Part shown: positions 7,149 through 48,841 of the stretch, piece after piece | How the letters are laid out: the number at the start of each line of letters is the position of its first letter | How positions within the stretch are numbered: position 1 is the first letter of the stretch | Source of the DNA: Dictyostelium discoideum | Lineage: Eukaryota | NCBI GenBank assembly: GCA_000004695.1 | Contig: CM000154.2 | Span: 2,720,001 to 2,784,000 of the forward strand | Reading direction: 5' to 3' | DNA: 64,000 nucleotides | Translations under genes and position numbers: made by a program | Notes under the pieces: generated by a model | Database searches by the model: none | What the model was told of the DNA's origin: nothing | The model's input: the letters and a program-made list of their open reading frames with translations, nothing else

Positions 7149-7389
7149 ATTTAAATTAAAGTTAATAAAATAAAATAAAAAATAAATAATAAAATGGTAA
7201 ATTAAAAAAAAAAAACCTAAATCTATTTTAATTCTATTTTTAGTTATTTATTTTTTAATCTGCATTTTTCTCAGCTTAATTATTTCTTAAATCTCTAAAA
7301 AATAAAATTATAAAAAACTTAATAAAAATTAAAAAAACCTAAGAATATAATCTATTTTATCCTGTAAAAAAACTTTGTTTTCAACAAAT

Positions 7390-7462
7390 GCCCAGATAGC
7401 TCAGTCGGTAGAGCGCAAGGCTTTTAACCTTGTGGTCGGGGGTTCGAGCCCCCCTTTGGGCG
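7390..7462 (+). tRNA. tRNA-Lys (anticodon UUU)
   Basis: GCCCAGATAGCTCAGTCGGTAGAGCGCAAGGCTTTTAACCTTGTGGTCGGGGGTTCGAGCCCCCCTTTGGGCG folds into a canonical cloverleaf: 7-bp acceptor stem, D-arm with A-box GCTCAGTCGG, anticodon stem CAAGG/CCTTG with loop CTTTTAA, T-arm with B-box GGTTCGAGCC. An identical copy sits at 48640..48712. Confidence 0.9.
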
Positions 7463-7491
7463 AATTTTTTAGATGGAAGAATTTGATCGTA

Positions 7492-8084: not shown

Positions 8085-8187
8085 AATTCACGTTTTACAG
8101 CATTCATAATATTGTGTGTTCATTTATTTATTAAGATCAATACATCTAAAATTCCGAACTTCGGATTGTAGGAAATTATTCAAAAAG

Positions 8188-8259
8188 CTCCCTGTCCGGG
8201 AATTGAACCCGGGCCTTTCGCGTGACAGGCGAAAATCCTCACCACTAGACCAACAAGGA
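8188..8259 (-). tRNA. tRNA-Asp (anticodon GUC)
   Basis: The reverse complement TCCTTGTTGGTCTAGTGGTGAGGATTTTCGCCTGTCACGCGAAAGGCCCGGGTTCAATTCCCGGACAGGGAG gives a cloverleaf: acceptor TCCTTGT/ACAGGGA, anticodon stem TTCGC/GCGAA, loop CTGTCAC, T-loop GGTTCAATTCC. It is convergent with tRNA-Lys. Confidence 0.85.
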
Positions 8260-21187: not shown

Positions 21188-21246
21188 GGCCACATAAATA
21201 CCAAATTAATTCGATTCAATTAGTTGAATTTAAAGTTATTGGCCCT
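21188..21246 (+). repeat. 57-bp conserved element, copy 1 (cggccacataaataccaaattaattcgattcaattagttgaatttaaagttattggcc)
   Basis: The second copy at 26205..26262 has 54/57 identity, in the same orientation, 5 kb away. Copy 1 lies inside the open 5' extension of the CDS at 21295. Copy 2 is intergenic, followed by poly-T. Confidence 0.6.
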
Positions 21247-21294
21247 TCTTCTGAATTAAACATTATTTGTGAAAAAACTGATACAATTGGACCA

Positions 21295-23346
21295 TTGGTG
21301 ACTTCACTATTGGCATATAACCCGGAAACACTATCGTATGGTAAATCTGTTGAAGTTGGGTTTGAAATACATTTTAAAGACGATTTAAATGGTATTGCTG
21401 ATATTAATTTTACTATAATCTCAGACAAAGATAAAAATGGTTTTGATTTTAATTGTAAGCCACCAGAAATAAAAAATACTCATACATGTTCTCCAAGATG
21501 GAATGTAACCATACCACAGACATTTTACATATCCCAAATGTCCACAATAGATAGCAAGGGTTATTCAACTGAATATCCTAATATTAATAAAGTAAACCCA
21601 ATGATGGAAATTGTAGAAACTGATTATAATAAACTGATAGTTACAAGTAGTGGTGAAATGGACACAGATATCCCAACGTTGGTTCATTTCATTTCTAATA
21701 TATCATATATAAATAATCAATCAGATAGATCGATTTTAGTTAACTTTACTATTGAAGATACCAATAGTGGTGTTTCAATTAAATATCAACCAACAATTTA
21801 TACAATCCCAGATACTTTGAATATTCTTTCATTTCCATGCAAACACGAAGAGGGTTTGATCAACAACACCAAATACCGCCAGGTAAATTTTTACTGCGAG
21901 TTAATGTTACCATATTTATATGGCTATCCAAACGGTTTCTTATTTCAAATTCATGGTGTTTATGATAATCATTTTAATTCTGCAGGTTTTTCTTATGAAA
22001 ATAGCCAAAGATTTGGTTTTTTCATAAATGTTACAGTTGGTGATGATATACCATTCATTGAATCATTTAAAACTGATGAATCATATATAACCTCAAAAGG
22101 TTTTAAATTTGGAATTTCACCTAGTGTAATATATAACTCCAACTTCACACAAGAACTATTAATATTTTCTCCTTCCCCTTTTTTAAATAACAGTTTTATT
22201 CAATTTAAACCAAATTTAACCCAAAACATTATTGGAGAAACTATTTTGATCTACATTAATACCTCGGAAGGAAAATCCAACACTATTTCAATTGAATTGC
22301 CATGTAAAGGAGAGCCATTATGTGGTGGTCAGTCTCAAGGAATTTGCACCCTAATGGGGTGTAGATGTAAACCTGAATATACCGGGACTGATTGCTCATC
22401 AAATATTATTATTATAAATCCAAATATTAACTTAACCGTTTGGTTGTCCAATGGTTTGGTTAAGTTAATATTTGGATTTATAATAATAATATTTGGACAA
22501 TTACCATACACTCACCATCAATCTTTGATTTCTGTTCATTCTTTAAGAGAAGTTGATTTCAATGGTAAATTGGTTAATGAATATATATTTAATAATTGGA
22601 GTTATTATGGTTCAAATAATAGTTTCTCATATATAACAGATGTCAATAATAAAAATGTACCTGATAATAATGTAAAGGTTGAGGTTTTAATTAGACATGA
22701 TAAAGATGGCGGTTTAGTAGAATTTGCCGGCAAAAATGTTCCAATTTTGCTGGGAGCTGTTAAGTATTATTTTTCTCTTTCTAAGTATATATTTAAATCT
22801 CAGTTAAATACATTACATTTGGTAATGCATGCTGCTGTAGAAACTTCACAAAAAGAAAATGTGTGCATGGGTAGTGAGTTTGGAATTGATGGTTTGGAAC
22901 AAGAATCTCAATACTTTAAAGTTCAAATCAATGGTTTTAGTCTATATGGACAATTTATGACAAGAGCAATAATAGATGGTAAATTTATATCAATCAGAAA
23001 CCTACAGGTTAATAGTTCAGATTTTAAAAAATCTTTAAACACCAACACACATTCTCAAATTTATTTTGCAATTGAAATTCCTAATTATGAAATAAGGGCT
23101 GAATTAGATCCAAACTTTAGTGTCCTCTTGGAAAATACCAATAAACCAAATTCTCAAAATTTTGTTTGTGTTGGTGGTAAATCAGGAGGTTTGACATCTC
23201 TGCAAATGATTGGAATTATAATATCTTGTGTGGGAATGTTTGTGGTTGTTATTGTAATAATTTGTTATATTTCATATAAAAAATCAACTTTTCTTCGTGT
23301 TAAAGCAAGATTTGTATCCTTGAAATTAAAAAGTCTCAGAGACTAA
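21295..23346 (+). CDS. Type-I membrane protein with EGF-like module, TM helix and short basic tail (683 aa in the track ORF); 5' end unresolved
   Basis: Track ORF starting at an alternative TTG. The frame is open back to 21109 with no in-frame ATG, so a signal peptide or first exon is missing or unrecognised. It contains the EGF-like CKGEPLCGGQSQGICTLMGCRCKPEYTGTDC and a C-terminal TM segment LQMIGIIISCVGMFVVVIVIICYI followed by KKSTFLRVKARF. Many N-glycosylation sequons are present. Confidence 0.5.
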   Translation: MVTSLLAYNPETLSYGKSVEVGFEIHFKDDLNGIADINFTIISDKDKNGFDFNCKPPEIKNTHTCSPRWNVTIPQTFYISQMSTIDSKGYSTEYPNINKVNPMMEIVETDYNKLIVTSSGEMDTDIPTLVHFISNISYINNQSDRSILVNFTIEDTNSGVSIKYQPTIYTIPDTLNILSFPCKHEEGLINNTKYRQVNFYCELMLPYLYGYPNGFLFQIHGVYDNHFNSAGFSYENSQRFGFFINVTVGDDIPFIESFKTDESYITSKGFKFGISPSVIYNSNFTQELLIFSPSPFLNNSFIQFKPNLTQNIIGETILIYINTSEGKSNTISIELPCKGEPLCGGQSQGICTLMGCRCKPEYTGTDCSSNIIIINPNINLTVWLSNGLVKLIFGFIIIIFGQLPYTHHQSLISVHSLREVDFNGKLVNEYIFNNWSYYGSNNSFSYITDVNNKNVPDNNVKVEVLIRHDKDGGLVEFAGKNVPILLGAVKYYFSLSKYIFKSQLNTLHLVMHAAVETSQKENVCMGSEFGIDGLEQESQYFKVQINGFSLYGQFMTRAIIDGKFISIRNLQVNSSDFKKSLNTNTHSQIYFAIEIPNYEIRAELDPNFSVLLENTNKPNSQNFVCVGGKSGGLTSLQMIGIIISCVGMFVVVIVIICYISYKKSTFLRVKARFVSLKLKSLRD

Positions 23347-23898
23347 TATTTCACTAGAAAAAAATTATTAAATAAATCATTTTATGAGAAATTTTATAAT
23401 CGAAATCTCTTTTATTTCGAAAAATGAAATTATTTGATAGAAATTGCATATTTTTTTTAAAGTAAAATTTGAACACAAATTTATTTATTCTTTCATTTCT
23501 TAAAATAATTTTTTCTAATAATTCTTTAATTTTAAAGAAATGATAGAATTATTTGTCCCATACCAAAATTATATATGATAAAATTAATAAAAACAAAAAA
23601 AGAGAAAGTTTTGAAAATGAAATTTTATTAAATGTTTACATTGGACCTATCAGTGAATAATTGAATTAATTCTAAACAAAAAAAAAGTTTTTTTTGAAAA
23701 AGATTGAGTTATCCCGGAGAAGTTCATTTTTTAAACAAAAACAAATTATTTCAAAAAAAGTTTTTTTTTTTTTAAAAAATTCCAAAATCTTTTAGCCAAA
23801 GTTTTTAAAATCTTTTTTTTTTTTTTTTTTTTTTCAAAATTTCAATTTAAAAAAAATAAAGGAAAAAACACACCAAAATTAAATAAGTAAGAATAAAA

Positions 23899-26002
23899 AT
23901 GAAATATTTATTAGTATATTTACACATATTACTATTTTGTTTATTAAAGATCAATAGCCAAAAGTATTGCACTTATAGTGGTGTTGGAGAAGATTATAAT
24001 ATCAAATTTGATGTCTTACAAACAAAGTATGTAATTTTTTTTTTTTTTCTTTCTCTTCTTTTTTTTTTTTTTTTTTTTTAAAAAAAAAACCTAATTATTT
24101 TTTCTTAAACGTTCAAACAGTGGTGGTATTGGTTTTCTATACTCATATTTAAGTGTTATTTTTACAACTTGTAATTATACTATTCCTTGTGGTAGTAATA
24201 GTAATAATGTATTGTGTGGATCATATCATTCAACTGTTCCACGCAAGTATCTTTCATTGGGATTTGTTAATGGCAGTACACATAGTTATAGCAAAGACGG
24301 ACTAATGATAACATATATATCACAGGATACAACAAATGATAATGATTGCAAAAGATATACAACAAATGTGATTTTTCAATGTAGACCAGATGGTGATGTA
24401 TCCGATTCATTAGATGTTGGCATCGACAATATACTTATTGATTCATGTATTGTTGAATTCACACTCTATTTACGTACAGTGTGTCAAACATGTCCAAACT
24501 GTTTAAAAACACATCAAACATCATGTAATGTGAAAAGTGGTTGGTGTACTTGTGATGGTAATACAAAAGGTTTAAATTGTGATCAATTAAATGCAAATAT
24601 ATCATCGGTATTAACACCAACAATTAGTGGTGGTGATGTTATAATGTCTGGTGATTTTTCAAATATTTATAATATTAGCTCAAGTATTACAATTTCAATT
24701 GGTACTTCAATTTGTAATAGTGTTATTTTCTCAAGTAATAAATCACAAATCAAATGTACGATAGGTGCAGGTGAAGGTGATCAACAAATTAAATTATCAG
24801 ATGGAAATGGTGCAACATTAATATATGATGGATTTTATTATAGAGCTCCTTGTTCAGTCGAATGTTCACCATTTGGTAAATGTAATGATCACGTTGGTAA
24901 TTGTATTTGTAATGATGTTGCAATTGGTACAGATTGTAAAACTTTAAATTTACAATTAGATTCAGTAACACCAACATTTGTAACTGGTGGTCAAGTTTAT
25001 TTAAATGGTAATTTCCTAAATGTCAAAGATCTTAGTCTAACTATTAAAATCGGTGATATAGAATGTTCAGATGTTAAATTCAACGATACTAATTTCAAAG
25101 TTTTGCAATGTATAATTCGAAAAGGTGAAGGTATTAAAGATATTATAATATCATCAGGTTTGCTATCATTTTCAAAAGCAAAAGCATTCGAATATCAATA
25201 CTACAAATGTCCACTCAATTGTTCAACACCAAATGGTACTTGTGATAATAATACTGGTAATTGTACATGCCATAATGAACATTTTGGTAATTCTTGTGAA
25301 TTTACTCGATGTCCACTCGATTGTTCGACACCAAATGGTACTTGTGATAATAATACTGGTAATTGTACATGCCATAATGAACATTTTGGTAATGGTTGTG
25401 AATTCACTCAATGCCCACTCTATTGTTCAACACCAAATGGTACTTGTGATATTAATAGTGGTATTTGTACATGTGATAATGAACATATTGGTAATGGTTG
25501 CGAAATTAAATTTATTGAATGTAAACATAAATGTTCAACCAAACATGGAATATGTGATAATGATAGTGGTAATTGTAAATGTGATACTCAAACAAAAGGA
25601 TTAACGTGTGAAGAATCAAGATTATTAATTGAATCATTAGACTCAATCAATTCAAAAGGTGGTACAATAAATATAATTGGTTATTTTGGAAATACAACAT
25701 CATTATTAACAATTAAAATTGGTGAATCACAATGTAAAAATATCAAAGTATTCAATGAAACAACATTAAAATGTGATATTGGTGAAGGTAAAGGTATTCA
25801 TAATATTACAATCATTGATGATGACCTTTCGTTCACAGCAATCAATAAGTTCCAATATCTCGATGAAAAAACAAAAATCTCAAAAATATCGAGAGGTGCA
25901 ATTGCTGGTATTGTTGTTGGTTGTGTTGTTGCTGTTTCATTAATTGGTTCTATTGCTTTTTATTATCATCACAAAAATAAAAAGGTTAATCTTTTCTTCT
26001 AA
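23899..26002 (+). CDS. Type-I membrane protein: signal peptide, MRH-like domain, IPT/TIG-like and three tandem EGF-like repeats, TM; join(23899..24026,24121..26002)
   Basis: Exon 1 is MKYLLVYLHILLFCLLKINSQ/KYCTYSGVGEDYNIKFDVLQT (track ORF 23899..). A phase-2 donor AA|GTATGT sits at 24027 and the acceptor CAAACAG at 24120. Exon 2 is the track ORF 24212..26002 extended 5'. The MRH-like Cys pattern is C..Y..G...F / CGS...LCGSY / CKRY..NVIFQC / CIVEFTLYLRTVCQTC. Three nearly identical 40-aa EGF-like repeats (CPLNCSTPNGTCDNNTGNCTCHNEHFGNSCEF) are encoded by a 120-bp tandem DNA repeat at 25201..25560. The TM is AIAGIVVGCVVAVSLIGSIAFYY. Confidence 0.65.
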
Positions 26003-26204
26003 AAACTAAAATAAAATTTAACCATTATGGTTTTTTATTACAATAATTAAAATTTCCCAATTATTTTTGATATTTTTCTTTTTTTTTTTTTCTTCCAACT
26101 ATGATTTATTTTATATAATTTTGTGTATTTTTGTGTGCTTTATTTATCTATACTAAATTCATATTAAAAATTAATAAATTTAAATTGTTATCAATTTTTT
26201 TCGG

Positions 26205-26262
26205 CCACATAAATATCAAATTAATTCGATTCGATTAGTTGAATTTAAAGTGATTGGCCAAG
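26205..26262 (+). repeat. 57-bp conserved element, copy 2
   Basis: cggccacataaatatcaaattaattcgattcgattagttgaatttaaagtgattggcc. See copy 1 at 21188..21246. Confidence 0.6.
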
Positions 26263-26762
26263 CTTTTTTTTTTTTTTTTTTTTTAAATTATTTTTTTAAA
26301 TTATTTTTTATTTTTTTTTTTTTTTTCATTTTTATTTTTTTCATTTTTTTTTTTATTCTGGCACATCACCTAACAAAAACAAAAGGTGAAATTTGTTTAT
26401 CGTGCAATAACTCTGTTTTGAAAAAATAAAAATAAAAATAAAAATAAAAATAAAAATAAAAATAAAAATAAAAATAAAAAGGATTTAAAAATTAAAAAAA
26501 AAAAAATAAAAAATAAATAAAAAATAAAAATAAAAATAAAAATAAAAAGGATTTAAAAATTAAAAAAAAAAAAAATAAAAAAAAAATAAAAAATAAAAAT
26601 AAAAATCAAAAAAATTAAAATTGAGGTGTTTTTTTGAGAAAATACCAACAATTCAATACCAATGTCTAAGACAGCCATAAATATTTTTTCCCTATTCCAC
26701 CAACTATAAAAAAAAACAAATAAAATAGTTTTATTAGTAAAATTTAAATTTTACATTTTTAG

Positions 26763-27556
26763 ATGTTATCAGAGTTTTTTAATAATATTACCTCATTTTT
26801 TGTTAATATTTTTTCATTATTTGAGGGAAAAAGAAATATAAGAATATTAATGATAGGTTTAGATGGTGCAGGTAAAAATCAATTCAATAGTTTTGATATT
26901 AGAAAAAATAATAATTTAATAAATAATAACAATTCATTTTTTAATTAAAAATTATTTTTTTTAGGCAAATCAACACTTTTATATAAATTAAAATTTGGTG
27001 ATGTTATTAGAACAATCCCAACAATTGGTTTTAATGTTGAAATAAGTATGTATCAATTTATAGGAATAAGATTGTATTAAATAATATATAATATATTATT
27101 TAAATATACATATAAAACAACCAATTTTATTAACATTAATTTACATTTTTTTTTTTTTTTCTATTTCCAAAAGTTGAATATAAAAATTTATCAATGAATG
27201 TATGGGATATAGGAGGTCAAAATAATATTAGAGCGTTATGGCGTCAATATGATCAAAGAACAGATGTATTCATCTTTGTAGTTGATTCTACTGACCGTGA
27301 AAGATTTGATGAAGTTAAACAAGAAATCAAAAATATAATTGAACAAAACAAAAATGAATCAAGTAATGCTTCATTATTAATCTTTGCAAACAAACAAGAT
27401 ATGCTCAATCCAATTACACCTGCAGAATTAGTTAATTCATTGGATTTAAATTCATTAACAAATAAAAAATGGCATGTTCAACCTTGTAGTGCAGTAAGAG
27501 GAGATGGTATTTACGAAGGTTTTGACTGGATAGTATCCAACTCTAGTGGAAAGTGA
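26763..27556 (+). CDS. ARF-family small GTPase (ARF/ARL-like, no Gly2 myristoylation site); join(26763..26871,26965..27045,27174..27556), 190 aa
   Basis: Two phase-1 introns (G|GTAAAAAT...TTTTAG|GC and A|GTATGT...CAAAAG|TT) rebuild the P-loop [76 protein letters not shown]...LLIFANKQD...[23 protein letters not shown]. These align with ARF1 switch I/II, the NKxD motif and the C-terminal SAT-GDGLYEGLDWL. Confidence 0.75.
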
Positions 27557-27774
27557 TTGCATTTATAAAGGTTTTGATTGAAGGGGTAGTATTTAACAAT
27601 AGATTATTAAATTAATTTCATTATCAAATAAAAAAATAAATATAAAACTATATAAAATGAATTGGGGGCAAAAGTAAAACAAAAACACATCTCTCCTAGA
27701 TAGATTGATGATGTTTTTTAATTCTCAATTTAATTTTAATAATTTTAAAATTTTTTATTTTTCATTAATATTAA

Positions 27775-27996
27775 GGGTTTGGGAGAGGTAGCACTCTTTT
27801 TATAAACTCTGAAATTGTGCAATACAGAGCGAATGCTATTTTAGATGTAATAAAGGCATGCCGATATCATAACATCTAAACCTCGAATAAAAAATTATTT
27901 TAAATTCGAATGCTTTCACTTAGAAAGCAAGAACGATTTTAAACGTTCTAGAACAGATACTACACTTGATTAAAGCTATTACGCTTCAAGAAGAAT
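27775..27996 (-). ncRNA. U2 spliceosomal snRNA gene, divergent in stem I (about 220 nt)
   Basis: The minus-strand transcript AUUCUUCUUGAAGCGUAAUAGCUUUA-AUCAAGUGUAGUAUCUGUUCU-AGAACGUUUAAAAUCGUUCU... contains a 21/21 match to the universally conserved U2 branch-point-interaction region GAUCAAGUGUAGUAUCUGUUCU. A perfect stem-loop IIa equivalent (AGAACG-UUUAAAA-UCGUUCU) follows, then an Sm-like AAUUUUUUA and a 3' end ...CUCUCCCAAACCC. The block is a GC-richer island in the 740-bp gap between convergent genes. A DUSE-like TCCCAAAA lies about 85 nt upstream (plus-strand 28081..28088) and a TATAAAGG about 50 nt upstream. Confidence 0.6.
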
Positions 27997-28151
27997 TGTG
28001 ACTTATGCTTTATTAAGGCAAAAAGTGATTTGATTTGTTTTTTTATTCTTCCTTTATATTATTATTAATAAAATTATAATTTTTGGGAAAAATATTTTTA
28101 ATTCTTTTGAATTAATTACAACAATTAAAAAAACATTGTTGAAATTCCATT

Positions 28152-28212
<61 letters not shown>

Positions 28213-28298
28213 AAATCAACACACATTGTTAAATTCTTTTTTAAATATCAAAAATAAACTTTTTTTTTTTTTTTTTTTATTTAATTTATTTAATTTAT

Positions 28299-30977
28299 TT
28301 ATTTATTTACTAACTTAAGAAGTTCATCAAATGTTTTAAACATATTAGTGACAAGTTCACTTCTTTCTTTAATATTAAATATTGATAATTCAAGTTTTTC
28401 AGCATCTCTAGATTTTTGTAAATCTTTAATTGCATTAACAGAATCAAAACCTGATGACATATATGAATAAGCTTTTGAAACATTAAGACAATCGACTGGA
28501 GCTAAATCTACATATCTTTGGAAATATTTTCTAATATCTTTATAATTTTCTGGCATATTGCCAATCATGGTAGAAGGCTCATCCCTTGGATTTGAAGTTT
28601 TAATATGTAGGGCATAACCTAAAAGATAGAAAACATATTCATTTACCATTGGTTTTGAAATTGTAGTATTATCGAAAATGTATTTCAAATCTTTGATAGC
28701 ATTTTCAAAATCACCAGCATAAATAAAACATTTACCACGAAGTGCCAAGAAATCGAAATCATATTTGAATTGTGGTTGATTTTTAAAGAGTTCCTTAAAT
28801 TTCAATATTAAATTGTTTCTTAATAAATCACTTTTTACATCAAGTGATTCAACAGCAAATAAAATTAAATTTGATTTTTTATCAGATTTATCCTTTGATA
28901 TATTTTTTTGACAATGTTCTTTAATTTTATCTTTTTGAATTGGTTTTAATTGAGCTACATAAAATTCTGATATTACCAATTCATACAATGGATCTAATGA
29001 TTCCTCAAGGTTACCTTGGTCAAACAATTTTTCGAAATCATTTTTTAATTCGATGGCTTTGATTAATTTCATTGCCATTTTTGAACCTTTATATGAATCC
29101 TCAACTAAACGAGGAAGATTTGCATTAAAGTCAATTTTAGATCGATTCAGAAAGGTAGATATCCTCACCTTGATTAGCAAAGTAGCTTTTGTTTGATATT
29201 TCTTTAACATTGGAATCATTACAAAAATCATCTGCCAATTTGAGATCATTCGATTTAAATGATTTATCCTGTTCCAAGATATGACCATATCTGAATACGA
29301 GTCTAGAGTAATTATCTTTTGCTTCAGCTCCCATGTCTTCACTTATTTCAGCAACTATTTTACATAGTTTAGCACTTCTAACAATGTCTCTAACTTTACC
29401 AAATATTAAATCTTGGAATTGAAGTTCATCTTGAAATAGAGTTTTACTATATAAATGCATTTATACCTTCTTCTGAATGTAATTGATTTCACAAGATTTT
29501 TCAAAAAAGTATAAACCTTTCTCAATATCCATATCGAAACCATCCTTACCGAAATAGAATCTATCTGCTAAATAGAAATTAAAGAATTGAATTTGATAAA
29601 ATGGTCCATTCTCTTCGAATTCGTGTAGATCTTTCTCTAAAGAACCATCCCTCATTCTTTTAACCTCATCTTTTGTAAAGAATGGTTTCAATGAGTAATG
29701 ATAATTTTTATTAATTTTCACTCCGTAACCTTTATCCTGAGCTTCTGATAAAATTCCTAAACCAAATGGTAGCCCAAGTGATGCAGAGTCAAATAAGAAT
29801 GGTATTGACTTTGCATAGTCTTTATCTCGGTGGAAGTTGTATTGAACCCTTTTCTAAAACACGTATAAGAAGGTCTTCATAAGGTTTATTATACTTTTTA
29901 GCGATTTGAATAATTTCATCCACCCTTTTTGCTGGGACACCTTTTGTTGGGAATTTCATATCAACTTTTTTAATATAATTATTCAATTCTTTAACTATAT
30001 CCCTTTTACCAGTATTTGCATCATAACATCTTTCTGATAGCTTCTTTTCAGTCTCTTTCTTTGTATATTGTACATCCTTGGCATCCTTATCAAATGATAA
30101 TGCAATATCATAGAAAGTTAATGCAATATCATATTGTCCGATATATTCATACGTTTGACCAATACGAAACCATCCTTTATACCACAATGGTCTTAACCCA
30201 ACTGAATCAATTGCATCATCTCTTGAATCTAATATATATTTAGATTGCGTATATCTTTGTGAAGCAAATTTATAGTTATTTACAATCCATTTATAATGTT
30301 CTAATCTTGAAATTGATTTATTACTTTTTATTATTGATATAGTTGTAGGTGAAATTTGTTCACAAGAAGCCTCCTATGCTAATTCATAAGATTCCACTGC
30401 TTCTGGATAATCTTTTTTAGTAAAATATTGGTTTCCAATATCTTTAAATTTATTAACTTTTTTTTCAACTTCTAATGTTGAATCAACTTGTTTATCTTTA
30501 AATAATTCTTTTAAATCATCGTCATCCCTATCAAATTCTAATTTACAAATTAAATTATTTTCATCTAAAACCGAAATTGATTTTTTAATATTATTAAAAT
30601 ATGTTTTAAATTCTTCATTTGATAAATATAATCTATATGATTCTTTATTTTAATAACTTTTTTTTTTAAAAAAATTAATATATATTAATATCTTTTTATT
30701 ATTTTTATTATTTATTATAAATTATTTTTTTATATTTACATTTTATATAATTTAATCTAATTTTTAATAATTCTTTATTTTCAATATCAAGTTTTGATTT
30801 ATTTAATTTAGTATATGGAGCTTGTAATACTTTTGTTAATAAAATAATATCCCAATTTGCTAATGAACCTAAATCAACTAATTTTTTTTGTTCTAATGGT
30901 AATTCTTTGTAGATTGTTATTTGATAAATATTTTCCAAATGGAGGTATAGAACTCCATTTTTGACCATTTGATTCAA
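28299..30977 (-). pseudogene. TPR/Sel1-like repeat protein gene carrying two in-frame stop codons and two frameshifts (probable pseudogene)
   Basis: Five consecutive minus-strand track ORFs (30708..30977, 29822..30187, 29461..29721, 29137..29460, 28299..29342) form one homologous reading unit. (i) TAG at 30374..30376 sits in-frame inside a TPR helix (...KDYPEAVESYELA*EASCEQ...), with an open frame for 100 codons on either side. (ii) A frame change follows within about 30 nt of 29822-29850; the -1 frame continues as Sel1-like ...DYAKSIPFLFDSASLGLPFGLGILSEAQDKGYGVKINKNYHY... (iii) An in-frame TAA sits at 29461..29463 between ...EKSCEINYIQKKV and MHLYSKTLFQDE... (iv) A frame change lies between 29137 and 29342. 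It is bridged only by an atypically GC-rich 64-nt GTGAGG..TTTAG candidate intron (29105..29168). Sel1/TPR signatures include LADRFYFGKDGFDMDIEKGLYFFEKSCE and WYKGWFRIGQTYEYIGQYDIALTFYDIALSFD. Confidence 0.5.
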
Positions 30978-47924: not shown

Positions 47925-48639
47925 TTTTTCTTAAAATGCCAAACCAATCTAACAATTTATAATTAAATAAATCTATTGATAGAAATTTTTTTTATTAATT
48001 ATCTAAAATATTGGTAGATTTATGTCCCAATTAAGTCTACAGCAAAAATTTATTTCTTTGTTAATTATTTTTATTTTCAAAATTCTTTTTATTGGATATT
48101 AACAAATTATTTTACAATCCAAGTATATTTTTTTTTTTTTTTTTTTTTTTTGTATTGATTAATTACAGTTTTTCAAGAAAAGGAAAATAATAAATAATTA
48201 TAATTTTTTTTTTTTTTTAAATATTAATTTATTATATGCTGAATCTTTAAGCAATAATAGTTTTTTTTTTAGTTTATATTTTGTTTTAAAATTTATATTT
48301 ATATGAATTGAATCAACAATTACTCTATTTGGTAGTATTGTGCTTGATAAACAATAATCTTTTATAATTTGGTTTTTAATATTTTTAATTTTTTTGATGT
48401 ATTCGATTTTTTAACAAATTGGGAGGGTATCTTTTGATGATGCTAATTTATAATTTTTAACTTTATTTATATAATCCAAGGTCGCTGATTCATACCATTT
48501 TTAAGAATTATATCATTGTATAATGTTTTGGCTTGGATTTGGTTGTCGTTGTGGAGTTTGTCCTAGGTGTGCAAGTCAATCTATTTACCACTAATTTTTG
48601 CATATCTATATGTGTATTATAATTTACAATTTTAAAAAT

Positions 48640-48712
48640 GCCCAGATAGCTCAGTCGGTAGAGCGCAAGGCTTTTAACCTTGTGGTCGGGGGTTCGAGCC
48701 CCCCTTTGGGCG
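48640..48712 (+). tRNA. tRNA-Lys (anticodon UUU), second identical copy
   Basis: Same 73-nt sequence as 7390..7462. An ex-B-like GAGGGTTCAACTCCC lies 27 bp downstream. Confidence 0.9.
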
Positions 48713-48841
48713 AAATTTTTAAATTAATATCGTTGATCGAGGGTTCAACTCCCAGTTTAATGTAATGCCAATATTGATCATAATAAATAAAGGAACACAC
48801 AATTAATATTATATGAATGCTGTAAAGCGTGAATCAAAACT

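Follow-up and report, generated by a model that had tools for sequence, protein, structure and literature searches.

Divergent U2 small nuclear RNA (snRNA) species of Dictyostelium discoideum are said to combine the hallmarks of U2 with an extra predicted 5' stem-loop, and these variants are reportedly developmentally regulated and enriched in the cytoplasm. Several rnu2 genes (rnu2a, rnu2b, rnu2c, and others) are listed in dictyBase, which counts 18 rnu genes in all, and developmentally regulated U2 variants in D. discoideum are named in the title of a 2006 report (Hinas et al. 2006, Eukaryot Cell 5:924). Two further reports describe animal snRNA variants or isoforms (e.g., human variant U1 and those of Drosophila) as multicopy families with divergent, differentially expressed members (PMC5159530, PMC4291461). 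With regard to promoters, the spliceosomal RNA genes of D. discoideum and D. purpureum carry a DUSE (Dictyostelium upstream sequence element) ~63 bp upstream; the consensus of this element is [AT]CCCA[AT]AA, and it precedes the transcription start by ~60 to 63 nt (PMC3188802, PMC7919456). At Class I RNA genes, a distant DUSE is accompanied by a TGTG box located ~60 nt after the DUSE.

Here we describe a U2 gene that lies on the minus strand of a 64,000-nt stretch of DNA (i.e., the whole stretch that was analyzed, called the window below; all positions refer to it). The source organism is D. discoideum; a neighboring exon (27194..27556) matches ADP-ribosylation factor F of AX4 (arrF; DDB_G0289435) with 100% identity. 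The arrF gene lies on the plus strand and ends at 27556, and an open reading frame (ORF) for a TPR-like protein lies on the minus strand and ends at 28299, so that the two genes are convergent with the U2 gene between them. The G+C content is 0.31 in the U2 match, compared with 0.105 to 0.135 just upstream and 0.20 downstream, in agreement with an initial annotation of this DNA that had described a GC-richer block between convergent genes. Homologues of the TPR-like ORF were found in two "Dictyostelium cf. discoideum" genomes (L001 and L002, called the siblings below), and in both of them a U2 gene is located just downstream of the TPR-like homologue (84.8 and 86.7 bits).

Other features of the window were observed in passing. 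Among 5.8 billion proteins, homologues of the TPR-like gene (28299-29342, minus strand) were found only in the D. discoideum complex. A homopolymer of ~70 T on the minus strand (28152-28221) occupies the space between the TPR-like stop codon and the U2 promoter block. The window also contains two identical genes for tRNA-Lys(UUU), separated by 41 kb (7389-7463 and 48639-48713, both on the plus strand) and a tRNA-Asp(GUC) gene (8187-8259, minus strand).

Family match and folding of the RNA

An Rfam scan of the whole window returned a match to the U2 model RF00004 at 27784..27996 of the minus strand (92.5 bits; E = 3.9e-17). The match is full length (i.e., model positions 1 to 192 of 192), and its score compares with a gathering score of 46 bits, which bears out the family assignment that the initial annotation had made from motifs. 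That assignment drew on a 21-nt match to the invariant branch-point pairing region of U2. This 21-mer is present and exact (AUCAAGUGUAGUAUCUGUUCU; 27970..27950, minus strand); the string quoted at the time ran to 22 letters, and its leading G is an A in the window. No second match to AUCAAGUGUAGUAUCUGUUCU occurs in the window even when 3 mismatches are allowed, and none was found in 100 shuffles. The 21-mer includes GUAGUA, the branch-point recognition sequence (27963..27958, minus strand). An Sm-like motif had also been noted, and it is found as AAUUUUUUA (27896..27888, minus strand) between stem-loops IIb and III, where it aligns to AUUUUUG of the model. The site has no G after the U run, and the Sm-like site of L001 has one U fewer than that of the window. 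At the other end of the RNA, the minus-strand read terminates in ...CCCAAACCC at 27775, the position at which the 3' end ...CUCUCCCAAACCC had previously been placed. This is a putative 3' end; the Rfam model stops at 27784, and the tail (...ACCUCUCCCAAACCC; 27775..27788, minus strand) differs from the sibling genomes in its last three bases.

The single-sequence fold of the RNA formed stem I and stem-loops IIa, IIb, III, and IV (z = -4.2), and all five helices are present in both the minimum-energy and the centroid folds. Across the three orthologues, standard pairs fill 164 of the 165 pair cells (99.4%), compared with 36 to 46% when the partners are slid. Stem-loop I (27970..27989, minus strand; fold and alignment) is built from the arms UUGAAGC (27989..27983) and GCUUUAA (27976..27970), whose seven consecutive standard pairs enclose the 6-nt loop GUAAUA. 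The loop measures 6, 4, and 5 nt across the three genomes, and the stem is invariant. Stem I had been considered strongly diverged, a description that holds for its sequence but not for its structure, since the 7-bp stem is intact; the mismatch in the Rfam alignment arises because the consensus register is forced on this stem.

The 3' arm of stem I carries GCU and AAUC, which are the segments that pair with U6 in helices Ib and Ia, respectively. The helix Ib segment GCU is kept and can pair with AGC of the Rfam U6 consensus. The helix Ia segment AAUC (GAUC in the U2 consensus) can make four Watson-Crick pairs with GAUU of the U6 consensus GAUUAGC; the G-to-A change improves pairing with consensus U6.

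Stem-loop IIa (AGAACG, loop UUUAAAAU, CGUUCU; 27930..27949, minus strand; Rfam and fold) has the perfect 6-bp stem that had been ascribed to it. Its loop sequence UUUAAA can, by base complementarity, pair with UUUAAA at 27904..27899, which would give a stem IIc-like alternative. Three more stem-loops were recovered on the minus strand by both Rfam and the fold, i.e., stem-loop IIb (GCUUUC, loop UAAGU, GAAAGC; 27912..27928), stem-loop III (27840..27880), and stem-loop IV (27789..27838), the last of which keeps the conserved U2 motif AUUGCAC in its loop (27823..27817). In other organisms, the AUUGCAC loop of U2 stem-loop IV is bound by U2B''/U2A'. A hairpin around the Sm site (UUCGAAU/AUUCGAG) is also predicted, with invariance as its sole support. 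RNAalifold proposed a long-range pairing between the GUAGUA block and the 3' end; we rejected this pairing because the lower stem of stem-loop IV, with which it is in competition, is supported by the Rfam model as well as by the single-sequence fold.

The window RNA agreed with U2 on every sequence and structure criterion tested, and we are highly confident that the gene, as far as its sequence can tell, is a functional member of the U2 family. A U2-derived RNA could also be expressed and conserved for a role lying mainly outside splicing (e.g., a cytoplasmic or regulatory role). The variants described in 2006 are said to be cytoplasm enriched and developmentally regulated, the 5' end and the stem I sequence of the window RNA differ from the universal consensus, and the 5' leader discussed below would adjoin the part of U2 that engages U6 in helix II, all of which would suit such a role. 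Against it, GUAGUA, GCU/AAUC, stem-loop IIa, the Sm site, and the loop of stem-loop IV are intact and invariant, and we consider a mainly nonsplicing function very unlikely because it would not need all of the splicing elements.

Promoter position and putative 5' leader

The initial annotation had pointed out a DUSE-like motif ~85 nt upstream of the gene. We found it as TCCCAAAA (28081..28088, minus strand), an exact match to [AT]CCCA[AT]AA, and its distance to the Rfam 5' end at 27996 is 92 nt from its first base and 85 nt from its last. The window contains 17 matches to the DUSE motif, about as many as chance alone would give (20.9). The weight of this one therefore comes from its position, strand, and conservation, the motif being invariant in all three genomes (i.e., the window and the two siblings). 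Measured instead to A28026, the distances are 62 nt from the first base and 55 nt from the last. A TATA-like TATAAA (28053..28058, minus strand), which is kept in both siblings, lies 32 to 27 nt before the same A28026; taken alone it is weak evidence because the DNA is ~87% A+T.

On the basis of the published DUSE spacing, the start should fall at about 28026-28018, and from this spacing together with the conserved TATAAA 32 nt before A28026 we infer a start near 28026. Transcription thus probably begins ~30 nt upstream of the canonical 5' end of U2, and an RNA that is longer by ~30 nt on this side would explain the odd distance of the DUSE.

The alternative is an ordinary U2 RNA of ~215 to 220 nt that starts at the canonical A27996, its DUSE being simply distant or its 5' end that of a trimmed precursor, with no functional leader. 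Position 1 of the Rfam model does fall at 27996, where the usual AU start is found, and the hairpin predicted in the putative leader (see below) is not significant. However, spliceosomal RNA genes are reported with a DUSE at ~63 bp, and the conserved TATAAA lies 32 nt before 28026, with no TATA-like sequence ~30 nt before 27996 in the window sequence. The upstream region of the window U2 gene also contains no TGTG box, unlike Class I genes with a distant DUSE. We therefore regard a start at the canonical position as unlikely and retain the upstream start near A28026.

With this start, which is set by the DUSE spacing, the putative leader covers 27997..28026 of the minus strand. It could form an interrupted 7-bp hairpin (ACUU-UU-UGC, loop CUUAAUAAA, GCA-U-AAGU; 28026..28001), a prediction shared by all three orthologues; its energy of -2.4 kcal/mol (z = -0.5) does not set the hairpin apart from those of shuffled sequences. 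The leader is 93% identical to the siblings, a level that does not exceed the conservation of the promoter spacer (89 to 96%), and the substitutions fall in the predicted loop. The leader and the altered sequence of stem I place the gene most likely among the divergent U2 variants of 2006. On balance, we lean toward a window U2 that is both 5' extended and of the variant class, a reading that relies on the DUSE spacing and on what is said of those variants.

Constraint, copies, and flanking sequences

Identity of the RNA core to its syntenic orthologues amounts to 97.6% for L001 and 96.7% for L002 (5 mismatches in 209 positions and 7 in 212, respectively; i.e., 2.4 to 3.3%). The neighboring TPR-like ORF exhibits 8.8, 9.2, and 12.4% mismatches to L001 at codon positions 1, 2, and 3, and the C-terminal part of this gene appears to evolve almost neutrally relative to L001. 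The corresponding values against L002 are 9.4, 4.9, and 6.4%. Compared with the ORF (31 of 249 third codon positions for L001; 29 of 420 positions of all kinds for L002), the RNA core contains fewer changes, with binomial p values of 1.9e-7 for L001 and a marginal 0.019 for L002; the test of constraint against L002 is weak (Fisher p = 0.07). Overall, the RNA core diverges 2 to 5 times more slowly than the ORF.

The changes within the RNA are unevenly placed: 3 of the 110 paired columns are variable, compared with 16 of the 143 unpaired columns (Fisher p = 0.014). Two of the three paired changes keep the pair (C-G to U-G and G-U to A-U), and the third creates a U-U. Stem-loop IIb contains both kinds, i.e., the C-G to U-G change in L002 and a U-A to U-U change in L001. 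No compensatory double changes were found among the three near-identical orthologues, because the three sequences are too similar; the structural support thus comes from the Rfam model. Judged from these alignments, the comparison shows purifying selection on the window U2 gene.

In a second D. discoideum assembly (GCA_054883475.1), two places on one chromosome-scale record of 5.29 Mb match the window locus with ~99.3% identity. The whole EGF/TIG-arrF-U2-TPR locus occurs twice on this record, in the same orientation and 175 kb apart (L004, CM142511.1 2811059-2817851; L005, CM142511.1 2636275-2643066). Over 5.5 kb, 8 mismatches and 6 gaps separate the two loci. The U2 gene is present in both, within a 436-nt block that is identical between them although the flanks differ. 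D. discoideum has at least two identical copies of the window U2 in this assembly.

Two options had been left standing in the initial annotation, i.e., a variant U2 gene of Dictyostelium and a U2 pseudogene that keeps only the core. The former is favored here: the DNA comes from D. discoideum, the promoter motif has been conserved, and a leader of ~30 nt would explain the distance of the DUSE. A pseudogene or decaying duplicate would accord with the 25 nt at the 5' end that depart from the consensus, with an Rfam score that is moderate for U2, and with the one U-U mismatch in stem-loop IIb of L001. The full-length model match with every helix intact, the conserved promoter motif, and the identity of the 436-nt block in both copies despite their differing flanks nevertheless oppose it. 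So does the slow divergence of the RNA, which is 97 to 98% identical at the syntenic site, with its changes concentrated in loops, compared with an ORF that differs by 9 to 12% (L001) and 5 to 9% (L002). We consider decay of the gene to be extremely unlikely, and the variant U2 gene remains our preferred reading.

Similarity to the siblings extends beyond the RNA on both sides. It begins ~45 nt upstream of the DUSE with a conserved block (28089..28131, minus strand) that is 84% identical to L001 and 98% identical to L002; the T homopolymer farther upstream does not align. Downstream of the RNA, a second conserved block (27704..27774, minus strand) is 95 to 96% identical to both siblings, and the similarity stops at ~27701-27704, i.e., ~70 to 80 nt after the RNA, where synteny breaks. 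This downstream block may be a 3'-end formation signal for the U2 RNA. Its interpretation as the 3' untranslated region of arrF was rejected, since the siblings have no arrF at this position.

The synteny break itself concerns arrF and an EGF/TIG (tgr-like) gene (window ~21200-27704), both of which are missing from that place in the siblings. Arf paralogues at other places likewise have Tgr/TIG genes as neighbors, an arrangement suggesting that Arf and Tgr genes move or duplicate as modules. U2 was absent from the Arf-gene loci of D. firmibasis (L006 and L009) and from the locus of a D. discoideum Arf paralogue (L008), and a protein search with concatenated DNase II exons provided no more distant syntenic loci.

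A single metagenome scan with a 25-mer specific to the variant yielded nothing but an unrelated, GC-rich contig. This contig (JGI Ga0247575_1014688; L007 1397-1625, minus strand) is not dictyostelid. It carries a U6 snRNA (76.9 bits) that is cut by the contig end, and the terminal UUUU of this U6 runs straight into a 5'-truncated U2 (66.1 bits) that starts with AAUCAAGUGUAGUA and is without the 5' end and stem I. This head-to-tail U6-U2 fusion could be a chimeric retro-pseudogene produced by template switching, or something stranger.

Constraint on the gene and on ~115 nt of its flanks in the siblings argues that the variant class is functional and not junk. A stronger proposal would be that the leader-bearing U2 is a distinct paralogue that has been kept by selection at least since the split between D. 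discoideum and "cf. discoideum", with its own flanking control blocks (~45 nt upstream of the DUSE and ~70 nt downstream of the RNA) and a role unlike that of the major U2 (e.g., in a stage-specific spliceosome or in the cytoplasm). We consider this proposal quite improbable. The idea of a distinct paralogue dates from 2006; if it is true, the new elements would be the constraint seen in the comparison and the conservation of the flanks.

Proposed RNA product and comparison with described U2 RNAs

As a whole, the data are best explained by a working D. discoideum U2 gene that is 5' extended and probably of the variant class, an explanation that we hold to be probable. RNA polymerase II would most probably transcribe the gene from the minus strand, under the control of the DUSE (28088..28081) and the TATA-like box (28058..28053). 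Given the geometry of this promoter, transcription would start near A28026, ~30 nt upstream of where a canonical U2 begins, and the product would be an RNA of ~245 to 250 nt in which a short 5' leader precedes a complete U2. According to established U2 biology, the Sm-like site would assemble the Sm ring, AUUGCAC of stem-loop IV would bind U2B''/U2A', and stem-loop IIa together with the 5' region would carry SF3a/SF3b. GUAGUA would pair with the intron branch site, and GCU..AAUC would pair with U6 in helix I.

The window U2 is a kind of gene already known; both U2 genes and divergent variants had been described in D. discoideum in 2006. It matters little beyond correct annotation, and any Rfam scan detects the locus with a score twice the threshold. 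A start ~30 nt upstream is a simple explanation for the odd distance of the DUSE.

Compared with RF00004, the window RNA exhibits the full-length model match, the branch-point block, stem-loops I to IV, the Sm site, and the AUUGCAC loop. It differs from the family in the 25 nt at its 5' end (AUUCUUCUUGAAGCGUAAUAGCUUU versus AUCGCUUCUCGGCCUUUUGGCUAAG), in the helix Ia segment (AAUC instead of GAUC), in two bulged bases (UU instead of AA), in its A/U-rich stems, and in an Sm site without the G; in addition, the RNA probably has a leader of ~30 nt before the canonical 5' end. The described D. discoideum U2 variants, as they are reportedly constituted, come from the same species, and the window gene shares with them the upstream DUSE and the U2 hallmarks; a 5' extension such as theirs is implied by the promoter spacing of the window gene. 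The extra hairpin predicted in the window is, however, thermodynamically weak. The snRNA variants of animals mostly carry point differences and keep the same ends, whereas the window U2 would add a 5' extension that is set by the spacing of its promoter.
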